A DNA stretch of 64,000 nt from an uncultured Planctomycetaceae bacterium. GTDB lineage: Bacteria > Planctomycetota > Phycisphaerae > SM23-33. How positions within the stretch are numbered: position 1 is the stretch's first letter; each line of letters opens with the position of its first letter. Both the position numbers and the translations under genes were made by a program. The notes beneath the pieces are model-generated. The model did not search any database. It worked only from the letters and a program-made list of their open reading frames with translations, and was not told where the DNA came from. The stretch spans positions 34,020 to 98,019 of the forward strand of contig CAYNZP010000006.1 of assembly GCA_964401835.1 (NCBI GenBank), read 5' to 3'. Below, piece after piece: positions 3 to 6,388 of this stretch.

Positions 3-479
3 CATAGATTGAATATCGTACGGATAGAAGTTCCGCCACTGCGTAATCGGCCCGAAGATATTGAACCACTGCTGGACTTTTACCTGACCTTTTACGCTCA
101 GCAGTACAGCCTTGCTCGTCGTGAATTAGGGCAGCGATTGAGAAAACGTCTCACGGAATATCCCTGGCCGGGCAACGTGCGAGAACTCTGCGCTTATGTA
201 GAGCGGTTATATGCTACAAACCTGCCTCCCATGCCTCCGACCAGTAATTCCTGGAATAACGGCTATGTAAGCGAATCCAAGCCCATCGAGCCAGCGCCGG
301 GCCGGATGCCGCAGTTCGACAATTCGCCTGTTTGCTGTACTCTCGCCGAAGCGGAAGCTCAGACAATCCGCAACGCACTTGAGATGTCAGGCTATAACAG
401 ATCTGCCGCAGCCAGGGTCCTCAACATCCATAGAAGCACCTTAATCAGGAAGATTCGCCAGCTTGATATGGATGCCTGA
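3..479 (+). CDS. sigma-54-dependent transcriptional activator, C-terminal fragment (5' end lies outside the window)
   Basis: Translation carries the motif 'IEVPPLRNRPEDIEPLLDFYL', typical of the AAA+ sigma-54 activator domain. The C-terminus is a Fis-type HTH (AAARVLNIHRSTLIRKIRQL). The frame stays open to the window edge. Confidence 0.75.
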   Translation, partial: HRLNIVRIEVPPLRNRPEDIEPLLDFYLTFYAQQYSLARRELGQRLRKRLTEYPWPGNVRELCAYVERLYATNLPPMPPTSNSWNNGYVSESKPIEPAPGRMPQFDNSPVCCTLAEAEAQTIRNALEMSGYNRSAAARVLNIHRSTLIRKIRQLDMDA

Positions 480-816
480 TACGCAGCCGAAATCCTCGGA
501 CTGGTTTATTTACCTCGGGAGAAATTTGACACACACTTCTCCACAAAATGATATCCTGATTTGAACCATTGAGAAAATTTCCTAATCAAATCCAACCCAT
601 TCTTCCGAAATAATGCCAGTAACCTGCGGAAGATCACCGCGCCGTAACATGCGACACCCAGCGCCGCAAGCTGCAACAACAATTGTCGCCAAACGCGACA
701 CCTCAAAAGCATGCCAAAACCCGCCGAATCCTCCTCGATTTTTTTAAAAATTTATCTCCCTACAAAACAAGTAGTTAGGTTTTTATTTTTCAGAAAATCA
801 TCTTTAGGCACGCCCA

Positions 817-1317
817 TTGCTCTATATAAGGGCAGTTGAGGGAACTATATCGAGGAGCCTAATAGCTGTGGAACTACTGAGGGGTAGAAACACGGCGCGG
901 ATGAAGAGGTCTGCGCAGAGCGGTCTGTGCGTCGTAATGGCTTGCACGGACATGAGTGAAGCTGACCACGTCAGACGAGAGCTCTTAGAACTGAATACAG
1001 GATGCCTGGTTACCTACCGGCGGGCTGAAGATTTAATGCTTTATGCCCCGGCTGGAAAGGTAGCTCTGGTAATTCTCGCTACTAACGATACACCGGCTAA
1101 TTTGAGCCGGGTCCTCCAGTGGCTGCGGAATAAGTGGCGTCGTTGTCCGATTGCCGTAATAGGCAACGAGGGCGGAAACGATCACGAAGTTCTTGCACGC
1201 CAAGGTGGCGCGTTCTACTTGACTAGGCCGGTCGAACCTGAAACATGGTCCGCCCTACTCGCACACGTTTTGCGGGAGTCTGTCGAGCAGGAACAATTAA
1301 TAAGCCCAAAGGAGTAA
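817..1317 (+). CDS. hypothetical protein with a degenerate receiver-like (pseudo-receiver) fold
   Basis: Weak CheY-like layout (VVMACTD ... VALVILATND ... GGAFYLTRPV). The conserved phospho-acceptor Asp and Lys positions appear to be replaced. Start is uncertain. Confidence 0.3.
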   Translation: MLYIRAVEGTISRSLIAVELLRGRNTARMKRSAQSGLCVVMACTDMSEADHVRRELLELNTGCLVTYRRAEDLMLYAPAGKVALVILATNDTPANLSRVLQWLRNKWRRCPIAVIGNEGGNDHEVLARQGGAFYLTRPVEPETWSALLAHVLRESVEQEQLISPKE

Positions 1318-1701
1318 CTCGCTGCCGCTCGGTGGCGAGCTTATATGTTCATACGAGGAGCCTTAAAGGTGGTCACGCTTTGATGTGCTTGACTGCCAGG
1401 TAGCGACGAGCCTCACAGCAAAGGACGATTCATGGCGAAAAAAACAAGCGGAGTTGAGCGCCTGCTTGTCTTCATCCCCACTCCTCCTTGGGATGGATTT
1501 GTCATGGGTTCTTTGAGGTAGAGATCACTGTGAATTGCGAAAACCAGCGGAGATGAGCGCCCTCTGGTACTTTCTGATACTCCTCCATCAGATATTTCGC
1601 AACTTTTTGTCGAGCCTCACATTTGACAGAGGGGATCTCTACCAAGGCGAAGGGCGATGATGGTGCCTTGAGCAAGCAGCATCTCGCCCACTTTTATTCA
1701 A

Positions 1702-1741
1702 AAAGAAGGTCTTTCGTTCTCGCGGAAGGCCTTCTTTTTTT
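1702..1741 (+). terminator. rho-independent terminator-like hairpin (AAGAAGGTC...GGCCTTCTT followed by a T7 run); palindromic, so it could work on either strand
   Basis: Seen directly: ~9-bp GC-containing stem plus TTTTTTT, located 90 nt upstream of the pdxJ ATG. Confidence 0.5.
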
Positions 1742-1832
1742 GCGCATACAAAAATCATTTATGCTGACAATGCCCTCTGCTAAGTCTAAAATAACAGCCT
1801 TCTTACATGGAACACTTACAGGGATAATTTCT

Positions 1833-3480: not shown

Positions 3481-5880
3481 TTATGCGCTTGTCGGTTCGC
3501 CGTTGAGGGCGGAGCTGCCGGACTGGTCGGCGGTTATCGACTGCTGCAAGGCCTGCCAGTCCTCAAGAGTCATGAGGCATTCTCTGGCTTGCGATCCCTT
3601 GTAGTCGCCAAGCAATCCTGAATCGGCCATCTGGTCGATTATCCTGCTGGCCCGGCTGTAGCCTATCTGCAAGCGCCGCTGCAATAATGAAACGCTGCCA
3701 CGCTGGCTGGCCAGGACTATTTCCACCGCCTTGTCGAACAGATCGTCTTTGTCCCCGCCAATCTCGCCGGATGGTCTGGAATTGAGCTTCATCAGTTCAA
3801 CGTTATATTGCGGATCACCGGCGGCGTTGCGCAGCTTCTTGACGACGGTGCGAATTTCCGAATCTTCCACGAATGTTCCCTGTGAACGGATAAGGTTGCT
3901 CGTGCCCGGCTGGAGGAAAAGCATATCGCCCTGGCCGAGAAGTACATCTGCTCCATTCTGGTCGAGTACGATTCGACTCTCCTGCCTCGATGCTACGCGG
4001 AAGCTAATTCGGCAAGGCATGTTGGATTTAATCAGGCCTGTAACCACGTTCACACTGGGCCGCTGCGTCGCAAGTACCAAATGTATGCCTACCGCACGTG
4101 CCTTTTGTGCGATTCTGATTATGTGCGACTCGACTTCCTTGCTGGAGGTCATCATCAGGTCGGCCAACTCGTCGATAATAATGATGTAATGCGGTATATG
4201 GAGCGGTATGCGGGCCTTTTCTTCGTCGGTCTCGGCATCGAACCGCTCATGAATTTCTTCCTTGTTGAGCTTGTTAAAACCGGCAATATTCCTGACGCCA
4301 GCTTCCTTGAATAACTCATAGCGCTCGTCCATCTTCGTCGCAGCCCATTCGAGAATTTCCTCTGCTTTGCGCATATCGTTGACAATCGGGCAAAGCAGAT
4401 GCGGCAGATTCTCGAACATGGCCATTTCGACCATCTTCGGATCGACCAGGATAAGCCGCACATCTTCGGGAGTCCTGGTCATCAACAGCGACATGATAAT
4501 CGCATTGATGCAGACACTCTTACCCGAACCGGTCGTGCCCGCGATAAGCATATGCGGCATGCCCCCAAGATCGGCGACAATCGCATCACCGCCGGCATCC
4601 TTGCCGAGGTAAAGCGGCAGGTACATCTGGGATTCCGACTGCGGGGACATATTCATCAGTTCTTTGATGCGGACCATTTCCTTGTCGAGGTTCGGAACCT
4701 CGATGCCGATGGTGTCCTTGCCCGGAATCGGCGAGACAATTCTAACAGCCGGCACGGCCAAACTACGGGCGATATCCGTTGACAGACTCGCTACATTGGC
4801 AACCTTGACGCCCGGTGAAACCGAAAGCTCGAAAAGCGTAATAACCGGGCCTGTCATGTGTCCGACAACTTCGGCTGCCACGTTAAAGTCGTTAAGCGTC
4901 TGCTGCAATACAGCCCTCTTTTCCAGGGCCTGGGCCTCCTGAAGCTCTTCGTAGCCGCCCTTCGGGTCGGCAAGTAAGTCGGCAGTAGGAAGCTCGTAAT
5001 TTTTCGCTCCCTTATTTTCAGGCTTTTTGACAATCTTCTTCTCAATCGGCCTGGGCTGAACTGGCTTGGGCCTGAGGCGTTGTGAAAGTTCCTTGACCTT
5101 TTCCTTCATGTCCAAGGCCGGCCTGGCAACTGGCTTGGGCTTGGCAACAGAGGTCGGAACGGCTGCGACCGCCCGGGGTGAAGCTGTCAGGTTGCGAGCA
5201 TCGGCAACGGCTGGGCTCTTTTCCCGCAGTTTTGAAAATATACTGGCCATTGATGGCAGATCGCTGCGCCGAGACCATACCTTCTTGCCAAAGCGCGGAA
5301 TTTGTAATACGAGATTCTCAGCTGTGAAAACCAGCCCAAGGCAAAAAGTAAGCGCTACAACTATCCACGCGCCCGGGCCAGCCAATTTTGAGAGCAAAAA
5401 CTCCCCTGACGCCGTTCCGAGTATTCCGGCAGGAAGAGCTGCGATATCGCCATTGCCGTCAGGGTTTTTCAGATAAAGTGCGGCACTGCCGGCAGCGATA
5501 AGCAGCGCCAAACCGACCACACGCCAAGTCAGATCTTTGATTCGTCCGCCAAGGACAAGGATAAACGAAGCAAAGCTGGCGAAAAGCAGTCCGATATAAA
5601 TACCGCTGCCCAGCCAATAACGAAGGAAATGCGAAATATAAGCACCAACCAAACCGGCTGCGTTGTCCACGGGACTTTGGGGCGGATATACGCTCTGCGA
5701 CGGCGGATCGGTCTGCGAAAATGTAAGCATACTCATCCAGACCAAAACCACCACCCCGGTTAGAACGAGGATAGAACAATAACGCCAGAATCGGCTACTG
5801 GCCTTTGGATGCTCAGCAGCGGTCTGTTTTACTTTTGCTTTTTTTGTTTCTCTTTTCGCCATCCCTAGCTTTTTCCTCAA
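3481..5880 (-). CDS. ftsK: DNA translocase FtsK (N-terminal TM region, Pro/Lys-rich linker, RecA-like motor, gamma domain)
   Basis: Walker [10 protein letters not shown], Walker [12 protein letters not shown], and a C-terminal winged-helix gamma domain ([23 protein letters not shown]). Confidence 0.9.
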
Positions 5881-6329
5881 ACTCCTGTATGACCAAATCC
5901 GCCCTTGCCGCGGTTGGTTTCGTCAAGCTTTTCCACCTGCACGACATCAGCCCGCGTTACCGGGGCAATTACCATCTGGGCAATTCTCATACCGCGTTTT
6001 ACAACAAAGGGCTCTCGCCCGACGTTACAGAGAATCACGCATACTTCGCCGCGATAGTCGGCATCAATCGTTCCCGGCGAGTTCGGCAGCGTAATTCCGT
6101 GCTTCAGTGACAGGCCGCTACGGGGCCTGACCTGCGCCTCATACCCGACCGGAATAGCCATGTAGAACCCGCAGGGAATAAGCTTTATTTCCCCAGGCTC
6201 GACAGGCACCTCAGCCTCGCAAGCGGCGCACAAATCCATGCCCGCCGCATGGTCGGACATATATTGAGGCAGCGGAACGTCCTCGCAGCCTTTCTTTTGC
6301 CTTATCTGTACTTTTATCGGACTGGCCAT
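5877..6329 (-). CDS. dut: dUTP diphosphatase
   Basis: Motifs [12 protein letters not shown] and [11 protein letters not shown]. The stop overlaps the ftsK start (ATGA). Confidence 0.9.
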
Positions 6330-6388
6330 CGATTTATCTCCATACTAAATGGCTATTGTTTGGAACCTGAATATGACAAATCACAATT

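Follow-up and report, generated by a model that had tools for sequence, protein, structure and literature searches.

A conserved structured RNA family of Phycisphaerae located behind a pseudo-receiver gene with a sigma-54-type promoter

Introduction

What lies in the long gap in front of the pdxJ gene of an uncultured Planctomycetaceae bacterium (Phycisphaerae), and does it act on the gene that it precedes? The gap comprises 515 nt, from the stop codon of the preceding gene at 1317 to the pdxJ ATG at 1833, within a 64,000-nt stretch of DNA (contig CAYNZP010000006.1, positions 34,020 to 98,019) that is called here the window. A sequence-only reading had seen in it a riboswitch-like leader RNA attenuating transcription of pdxJ-dapA, and named a trans-acting small RNA (sRNA) with C/U-rich seed loops as the alternative. 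Window positions 1354/1403-1741 are in fact a conserved, highly structured non-coding RNA (ncRNA) of roughly 300-390 nt, specific to Phycisphaerae, and we are highly confident that this is a genuine conserved RNA without a role in pdxJ control. Its stable partner is the gene upstream, which codes for a degenerate receiver protein and is preceded by a sigma-54-type promoter. The explanation that accounts best for the whole, and to which we give about an even chance of being right, is a sigma-54-dependent ncRNA located in the 3' region of this pseudo-receiver gene and most likely acting in trans, so that the evidence favours the alternative over the leader.

Structure of the element

The gap contains two multi-helix domains, a terminal hairpin and a strong intrinsic terminator, preceded by two short 5' motifs. 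These are the parts:

1354-1362, plus strand: leader motif CGAGGAGCC, probable 5' region of the RNA
1403-1417, plus strand: 5' anchor motif GCGACGAGCCUCACA, with family consensus GCGAUGAGCCUCAC
1420-1514, plus strand: domain 1, a closing helix (1420-1439/1498-1514) enclosing hairpins A1 and B1, as given by the minimum free energy fold
1444-1469, plus strand: hairpin A1, arms ACAAGCGG and CUGCUUGU, loop AGUUGAGCGC
1473-1495, plus strand: hairpin B1, arms CAUCCC and GGGAUG, loop CACUCCUCCUU containing CUCCUCC
1517-1643, plus strand: domain 2, made of the long-range helix, the inner helix and hairpins A2, B2 and C, as given by the alignment of 67 homologues
1517-1526 with 1634-1643, plus strand: long-range helix, a perfect 10-bp complement
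1535-1542 with 1595-1602, plus strand: inner helix
1543-1568, plus strand: hairpin A2, arms ACCAGCGG and CCUCUGGU, loop AGAUGAGCGC
1574-1591, plus strand: hairpin B2, arms CUGAU and AUCAG, loop ACUCCUCC
about 1610-1633, plus strand: hairpin C, containing GAGCCUCAC
1644-1660, plus strand: near-invariant AAGGCGAAGGGCGAUGA, running into the terminal hairpin
1652-1689, plus strand: terminal hairpin with loop UGAGCA, then a weak U tract ACUUUUAUUC (segment 1644-1699)
1700-1741, plus strand: strong intrinsic terminator, an inverted repeat with 17-nt arms and T7/U7 (feature to 1745 with GCGC)

The two modules are direct repeats spaced 99 nt, with 83% identity between 1441-1469 and 1540-1568 and 80% between 1480-1494 and 1579-1593. 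All that the sequence-only reading had described of a structured, non-coding plus-strand RNA with two duplicated modules and compensatory changes in their stems is present, off by 1-3 nt, and the same holds for the closure by a long-range helix and the intrinsic terminator at the end. The terminator at 1700-1741 is a G+C-rich hairpin on the transcribed strand with a U tract directly behind it, and it ends 92 nt before the pdxJ ATG. At the other side the RNA extends at least to 1403 and probably to 1354. This 5' extension had escaped the sequence-only reading, as had the weaker terminal hairpin and the promoter matches at 806-821 and 1764-1792. The fold of 1420-1760 has an energy of -128 kcal/mol on the plus strand, with z = -5.6 against dinucleotide shuffles, and z = -4.4 on the minus strand. 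The loop motif in the window alone is not significant (2 matches versus 0.67 expected, a number reached by 12 of 100 shuffles); the element stands above chance because its homologues, in about 100 other contigs, repeat the architecture with compensatory changes.

Rfam 15 at gathering thresholds gave no match in the entire 64 kb, and over 1200-1900 at E <= 10 there were only chance matches to the terminator. With about 100 examples and no Rfam match, a new RNA family is well supported. A small open reading frame (ORF) in the leader was discarded: after GAGGAGCC the window reads GTG-VTL-stop and one homologous locus (L089; L numbers denote loci throughout) has a longer ORF, and the frames over the conserved motif differ.

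Conservation and covariation in homologues

We fetched the 80 closest pdxJ loci, one genome per species, with a best pdxJ identity of 79%; the close ones all come from Phycisphaerae or other Planctomycetota metagenome-assembled genomes (MAGs). An nhmmer search with the gap sequence found a plus-strand match upstream of pdxJ in only 9 of them. Three tandem copies of the RNA are present in L030, L018 and L046, and in L007 and L012 the match is 1-2.6 kb away from pdxJ. Alignment of 11 sequences showed freely varying stems and three invariant parts: loop A has GGAnnUGAGCnCC, loop B has CUCCUCC, and GGCnAAGGGCGA precedes the last hairpin. A gapped pattern built from these invariant parts retrieved 112 metagenome stretches, of which 18 were removed as chance matches within GC-rich coding DNA (for example EF-G or alaS) that nhmmer missed. 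The nhmmer profile gave 134 matches in 103 loci (94 from metagenomes, the window and 8 genome loci with the exact pattern), and all 134 are found on the strand of the upstream gene.

The 3' domain of 67 units below 88% identity was aligned by MAFFT without structure reference, and from this alignment RNAalifold recovered the long-range helix, A2, B2 and the terminal hairpin, with double compensatory changes at 28 of 31 predicted pairs. We tested 44 pairs in total (the RNAalifold pairs, the inner helix, hairpin C and the terminal hairpin's base) against controls in which the partners were slid by 1-3 columns. The fraction of paired cells was 88.4%, versus 43-49% in the slid controls; there were 340 cells with double changes versus 42-102, such changes affected 36 of the 44 pairs, and none of 500 shuffles reached the observed value on any of five measures. 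The long-range helix, 93.9% paired, shows compensatory changes at all 10 of its pairs. Pairing reached 95.7% in A2, 86.8% in B2, 71.8% in the inner helix and 70.8% in hairpin C, and the terminal hairpin is 90.4% paired, with a covarying upper stem. Frequent G-U pairs (e.g. 14 at columns 53/207) are compatible with the plus strand only, and GGCnAAGGGCGA is invariant or nearly so across the 67 sequences.

Domain 1 varies in length, so that global MAFFT alignment plus RNAalifold resolved only hairpin A1 (83.8% paired versus 39-50% in slid controls; 88 double changes versus 12-31) and single-sequence fold shapes were used instead. The shape [[][]] was found independently in 32 of the 67 homologues, and 13 more have it with an extra 5' hairpin. 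The 5' anchor motif was recognised in 48 units, preceding module 2 at a fixed distance of 137-163 nt. Loop B2 always has CUCCUCC and loop B1 often does, and the loops of A1 and A2 carry AGAUGAGCGC instead. A kissing contact of loop A (GGAGA/U) with loop B ((A/U)CUCC) was considered and found unsupported, since the base that precedes CUCC does not change in step with the A/U position.

The weaker terminal hairpin at 1652-1689, just 5' of the strong terminator, is the conserved 3' hairpin of the family. In most homologues it is directly followed by U6-8 and GCGC and acts as the terminator, and a T run of at least 4 follows it in 99 of 129 pattern matches (a set that still includes the 18 chance loci). 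The window has a weak U tract at this place (ACUUUUAUUC), and U7 plus GCGC is carried by the second terminator at 1700-1745; tandem terminators are found also in L137, L124 and L096. TTTTTTGCGC occurs once in the 64 kb, and the T run plus GCGC after the RNA is conserved in the homologues. This GCGC past the U tract (window 1735-1745, alignment column 270 onward) is kept beyond the expected 3' end; its conservation could reflect a later end of the RNA or a signal at the DNA level.

Tandem units with two or three paralogous copies are found in L030 (3021-3875) and L018 (3042-3902), and also in L099, L103, L135, L156, L181 and L184. No U tract follows the conserved hairpin that closes their internal units, and in the L030 group the first module of these internal units is without the AGAUGAGCGC loop. 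In these arrays only the last copy has a U tract, which fits one transcript per array.

The upstream module and the probable origin of the transcript

Like the strand of the RNA, its upstream neighbour is constant. The pseudo-receiver gene was found directly upstream and on the same strand in 69 of 74 non-redundant loci with enough flanking sequence, and most loci have a gene for a sigma-54 activator upstream of the RNA as well (tblastn with the window proteins). The corresponding parts of the window are:

9-479, plus strand: 3' end of the sigma-54 activator gene (bacterial enhancer-binding protein, bEBP), with Pfam AAA_lid_14 and HTH_8 (Fis-type helix-turn-helix, HTH)
806-821, plus strand: canonical sigma-54 promoter AGGCACGCCCATTGCT (GG-N10-GC), upstream of the pseudo-receiver gene
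851-859, plus strand: CGAGGAGCC, strong Shine-Dalgarno (SD) region of the pseudo-receiver gene, conserved in the leaders of its homologues
868-1317, plus strand: pseudo-receiver gene 'up166', starting at GTG 868, ATG 901 or ATG 952

The promoter at 806-821 is the sole GGCAC-N5-TTGCW match in the 64 kb, and an equivalent one was found 70-130 nt upstream of the pseudo-receiver homologue in 55 of 77 loci. The distance from the stop codon of this gene to the RNA core has a median of 116 nt. Within it the leader motif CCGAGGAGCCU starts at a median of 47 nt and a minimum of 5 nt after the stop, a GAGGAGCC-like motif is present in 43 of 69 loci, and the GCC of CCGAGGAGCCU includes an invariant column of the 5'-domain consensus. 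A terminator-like hairpin with a T run was found in none of the 69 gaps between gene and RNA. In three divergent loci (L119, L130 and L145) a canonical sigma-54 promoter is located 95-170 nt upstream of the CGAGGAGCC leader of the RNA itself, after the pseudo-receiver gene where one is present; L145 has no homologue of this gene in the 1.2 kb available upstream. The short gaps devoid of terminators, the lack of a credible promoter in the gap of the window, the position of the U tracts in the arrays and the promoters of these three loci make it likely, as far as motifs can tell, that the RNA is sigma-54-dependent throughout and mostly made as the 3' part of the pseudo-receiver transcript. Both a GG-N10-GC promoter and a bEBP with an AAA+ domain (GAFTGA in the L082 homologue) are found upstream, as expected of a sigma-54-dependent RNA. 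We argue also that the transcript includes the leader motif.

Other promoters were sought closer to the RNA. Neither the window nor most of the loci have a canonical sigma-54 promoter directly 5' of it, and a sigma-70 promoter in the gap, at the hexamer TTGACT (1389-1394), was rejected for want of a -10 element. TGGTCACGCTTTGATG at 1370-1385 is sigma-54-like, with the spacing off by one base and the GC dinucleotide missing, and TGGGAACGGCTTTGCG is found at a similar place in L089, L097 and L166; the window site may be a decayed or weak internal promoter.

The product of the gene at 868-1317 has no Pfam match, and its 101 homologues are all unannotated or loosely named response regulator. Its AlphaFold2 model (predicted local distance difference test, pLDDT, 90.8) matched CheY-like receiver domains in Foldseek at template modelling (TM) scores of 0.7-0.8. 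In the alignment the phospho-acceptor Asp is replaced by Thr, Ser or Ala (VALVILAT) and the conserved Lys by Arg (YLTRPV), and because of these two replacements we consider it a pseudo-receiver. The full activator on the source contig has 334 aa, with Sigma54_activat and HTH_8 as only domains and no receiver domain, and the homologue in L082 (346 aa) carries the GAFTGA motif (KGAFTGA). The arrangement of an activator with only AAA+ and HTH domains followed by a separate pseudo-receiver spans 9-1317 of the window, where the activator gene is cut short, and 4524-6366 of the source-contig locus (L193). By analogy, the pseudo-receiver may be an anti-activator, in a layout recalling the PspF/PspA type of feedback. 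The source contig has in addition, upstream of the window's first gene, on the opposite strand and divergent from the activator (L193 1459-4081), a HAMP-HisKA-HATPase histidine kinase and a receiver-GGDEF regulator, a pair that is probably outside the conserved module because L082 has a different upstream neighbour.

The 9-mer CGAGGAGCC has just two copies in the 64 kb, at 851 and at 1354, that is, on the ribosome-binding site of the pseudo-receiver gene and in the leader of the RNA. The leader of this gene (851-900) and those of its homologues share the conserved purine motifs GAGGGA ... CGAGGAGCC ... GAGGGA, and in many homologous leaders a small hairpin displays the start-codon region (CGAUGAGG-like loop). 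These motifs and the hairpin suggest that the pseudo-receiver gene could be under post-transcriptional control.

Relation to pdxJ

The downstream neighbour is not conserved. The RNA pattern by itself, without bias towards pdxJ, led to 46 non-redundant loci, and in these the next gene was pdxJ in 4, an araB-like kinase in 13 and another gene in 29, among them a metallophosphoesterase and convergent genes such as murD. These counts were made by tblastn, since choosing the longest downstream ORF gave antisense artefacts in this high-GC DNA. The notion of a cis leader or riboswitch of pdxJ-dapA is hard to reconcile with these numbers, the more so as in about 70 of the 80 closest loci the 4 kb upstream of pdxJ contain no copy and the conservation expected of orthologous pdxJ leaders is effectively lacking. 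Even where both are found together they can be separated, and whole genes lie between RNA and pdxJ in L007, L012 and L082, including an araB-araD pair in L082 and L007.

One further feature marks the boundary, outside the RNA:

1764-1792, plus strand: sigma-70-like promoter match CTGACA-17-TAAAAT (consensus scan, 10 of 12 positions)

At the same place TTGACC-17-GACAAT was seen by eye in the pdxJ-adjacent loci L030, L018 and L031, all of these being consensus matches only. Judging from these sites, pdxJ probably has a separate promoter. The public call for pdxJ (262 aa) starts at ATG 1770 and would overlap the promoter-like site, and the homologues align from ATG 1833 (MAGLGVNIDH). The araB-like ribulokinase right after the RNA (13 of the 46 unbiased loci and 14 of all 55, L007 from 1515 onward) is commoner than pdxJ and in L082 (4780-7174) is followed by an araD-like epimerase; this adjacency is probably inherited gene order within one subclade.

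Proposed mode of action and alternative explanations

In the mechanism that we favour, three pieces would form a module: a sigma-54 activator without receiver, a sigma-54-dependent pseudo-receiver gene and, distal to them, the RNA. Transcription would most likely start at 806-821 together with the pseudo-receiver gene, giving an RNA in the 3' untranslated region (UTR) that is possibly processed, and in some lineages would start at a sigma-54 promoter of its own; it would stop at the RNA's own intrinsic terminator or terminators before pdxJ. When the activator fires the RNA would accumulate, and its two exposed CUCCUCC loops would pair with the few strong GGAGG/GAGGAG ribosome-binding sites of the genome and lower their translation. 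The CGAGGAGCC of the pseudo-receiver mRNA would be among the paired sites, making feedback possible, and the remaining invariant elements would be there for folding, for stability or for a protein partner. The anti-SD action itself is a tentative proposal from the loop sequences, with somewhat less than an even chance in our estimate. The only two plus-strand occurrences of CUCCUCC in the 64 kb are at 1481 and 1580, and strong SDs are rare: a correctly spaced GGAGG or GAGGAG precedes only 9 ORFs of the window, including those of the pseudo-receiver (GTG 868), acyl carrier protein (ACP) and FabF. If the anti-SD loops act, the ACP and FabF-like genes (50141 and 49180, both on the minus strand) are candidate targets.

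Several points weigh against this explanation. On the side of expression, 22 of the 77 loci have no canonical sigma-54 match at the threshold used, the promoter scan gave no recognisable promoter in 1318-1403, so that expression hinges on read-through from 806-821, and a weak hairpin with a poor T tract (1318-1339) follows the stop codon. The transcript, its ends and any processing are themselves deduced from the DNA. On the side of function, loop B1 is less conserved than loop B2, and the duplex between the pseudo-receiver leader and the CUCCUCC loops has the same energy in cognate and non-cognate combinations (-20.56 vs -20.55 kcal/mol, permutation p about 0.48). Pairing specific for the cognate leader was accordingly discarded, there being no sign of a specific, co-evolving target site. 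Furthermore, anti-SD pairing uses about 7 nt of an RNA of about 340 nt and gives no reason for the GCGC that follows the U tract, for the equally invariant AAGGCGAAGGGCGAUGA or for the AGAUGAGCGC loops. Nor does it account for the GA(G/U)GAGC-like motifs, which recur and include the SD of the pseudo-receiver gene itself.

These motifs are the core of the strongest alternative, namely a protein-binding RNA (sponge, scaffold or ribonucleoprotein) in which repeated invariant purine-rich motifs titrate an RNA-binding protein. The two AGAUGAGCGC loops, CGAGGAGCC, GCGAUGAGCCUCAC, GAGCCUCAC and UGAGCA would provide about six GAGC-type sites. The partner possibly binds also CGAGGAGCC in the pseudo-receiver mRNA, or is the pseudo-receiver itself, with a logic akin to CsrB/RsmZ-CsrA, CrcZ-Hfq/Crc or CcaF1-CcsR. 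Such a role would suit an RNA in which invariance is concentrated in loops and single strands on freely varying stems, in which CGAGGAGCC is shared by the ribosome-binding site of the gene and the 5' end of the RNA and by nothing else in the 64 kb, which comes in two or three tandem copies as is typical of titrating RNAs, and which lacks a cognate-specific base-pairing signal. However, no RNA-binding protein stands out as candidate, the pseudo-receiver having an ordinary CheY-like fold in which no known RNA-binding module is present, the motif repeats rest on reading by eye, and there are no Rfam matches to the CsrB, Rsm or CrcZ families. On balance we find this alternative unlikely, though it is to be taken seriously.

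A related view is that an RNA with such a complex fold is not a simple base-pairing sRNA and forms a dedicated ribonucleoprotein or a sensor with the orphan sigma-54 module. In one version the six GAGC-type motifs would bind the pseudo-receiver or another protein and gate the receiver-less activator. We rate this as improbable; if true, the RNA would be part of a new three-part signalling unit (activator, pseudo-receiver and RNA) confined to Planctomycetota.

Less probable again is a purely cis-acting 3'-UTR element, with no separate RNA, that stabilises the mRNA or whose CUCCUCC loop masks the gene's own CGAGGAGCC in a translational feedback. The RNA always follows the gene directly on the same strand with no intervening terminator, and the SD of the gene is complementary to the loops, as this view would predict. 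It does not explain the loci in which the RNA has its own sigma-54 promoter, 95-330 nt from the gene (L119, L130 and L145), or has no pseudo-receiver homologue in the upstream sequence available (L145), and both the arrays of two or three copies and the missing cognate-specific complementarity between leader and loops are hard to accommodate.

We consider it very improbable that an sRNA gene stands by itself here, driven by a non-sigma-54 promoter in 1318-1403, in which case the upstream synteny would be only inherited gene order. The TTGACT hexamer and the presence of some spacer at all loci between stop codon and RNA speak for it. But no acceptable -10 follows the hexamer and the gap scan showed no promoter-like site, some loci have just 5-20 nt between stop codon and leader motif, leaving no room for a promoter, and the promoters that can be recognised are of sigma-54 type.

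Finally, a riboswitch or attenuator (sensing pyridoxal phosphate, PLP, for example) controlling read-through into pdxJ-dapA has next to no probability left, since a terminator that, in the window and in a minority of the relatives, closes the RNA 90-200 nt short of pdxJ and a possible 5-bp alternative pairing (CGCCC of loop A with GGGCG in the 5' arm of the terminal hairpin) are set against unrelated or convergent genes after the RNA in all but 4 of the 46 loci, its absence near some 70 of 80 related pdxJ genes, the whole genes in between, the promoter-like site after the terminator and tandem copies that make no sense for a leader. The anti-terminator pairing, the only candidate competitor of the terminator, was set aside as lacking covariation support: its 5 bp are at invariant positions, which give covariation nothing to act on, and GAGCACC variants are uncompensated. 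A tempting false lead is thus removed, and this locus still provides no evidence for a PLP/vitamin B6 riboswitch.

Comparison with known systems

Planctomycetota, and Phycisphaerae especially, have almost no described regulatory RNAs, and our literature searches on regulatory RNAs of these groups found none of this kind. Like terminator-type riboswitches, the RNA in this window is a multi-helix junction with an intrinsic terminator upstream of a biosynthetic gene. Unlike them, it has no conserved downstream gene, trails a gene rather than leading one, forms tandem arrays and shows no supported alternative pairing. The likeness to CsrB/RsmZ and CrcZ consists in a short invariant motif repeated in loops and single strands on a variable scaffold, one copy of which is on a ribosome-binding site, and in an amplified gene number. 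GGA is found in the leader and at the base of both A loops (A1 and A2), and the repeated unit as read by eye is GA(G/U)GAGC; the motif is GA(G/U)GAGC-like and not A(N)GGA or A-rich CA as in those RNAs, to which there are no Rfam matches.

Sigma-54-dependent sRNAs encoded beside the gene of their activator are known in Qrr (LuxO), GlmY (GlrR/QseF) and CrcZ (CbrB). As in these, the RNA described here adjoins a bEBP gene, has a GG-N10-GC promoter upstream and an intrinsic terminator, and would be the output of a signalling module. In contrast to them it has no Rfam matches, its activator is without receiver or sensor domain, a pseudo-receiver ORF between activator and RNA carries the promoter in most lineages, and its sigma-54 dependence is predicted from motifs. 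With its place beside a sigma-54 pseudo-receiver gene and a sensor-less activator, the RNA offers a concrete regulatory circuit that can be tested, in a phylum that has been little studied.

The closest analogue is found in the cuckoo/CcsR RNAs of Alphaproteobacteria (RF02344 ar14; CcsR1-4 in Rhodobacter sphaeroides, NfeR1 in Sinorhizobium). The covariance model of RF02344 gave no match at the gathering threshold in the 64 kb, nor at E <= 10 over 1200-1900. Both groups have C/U-rich anti-SD hairpin loops (CCUCCUCCC there, CUCCUCC here), modular stems diverging by compensatory change, tandem gene copies and one-sided synteny with a small protein gene of unknown function. The Rhodobacter CcsR RNAs are co-transcribed with the small-protein gene and processed by RNase E from its 3' UTR (PMC4615179, PMC8034643). 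The RNA described here differs in its hosts, Phycisphaerae MAGs of another phylum, and in its much larger size, with two multi-helix domains closed by long-range helices and with the invariant AGAUGAGCGC loops and AAGGCGAAGGGCGAUGA added. Each module has one anti-SD loop (CUCCUCC, invariant in B2 and common in B1), and every second hairpin (A1, A2) has the AGAUGAGCGC loop. Its partner is a CheY-like pseudo-receiver without Pfam match instead of a DUF1127 protein, and its promoter is of sigma-54 type instead of RpoHI/HII. What is new is a family of activator-linked, multi-hairpin putative regulatory RNAs borne in a 3' UTR and carrying anti-SD loops, which by this analogy appears to have arrived independently at the cuckoo/CcsR design of anti-SD loops, tandem copies and a location in the 3' UTR of a small gene.

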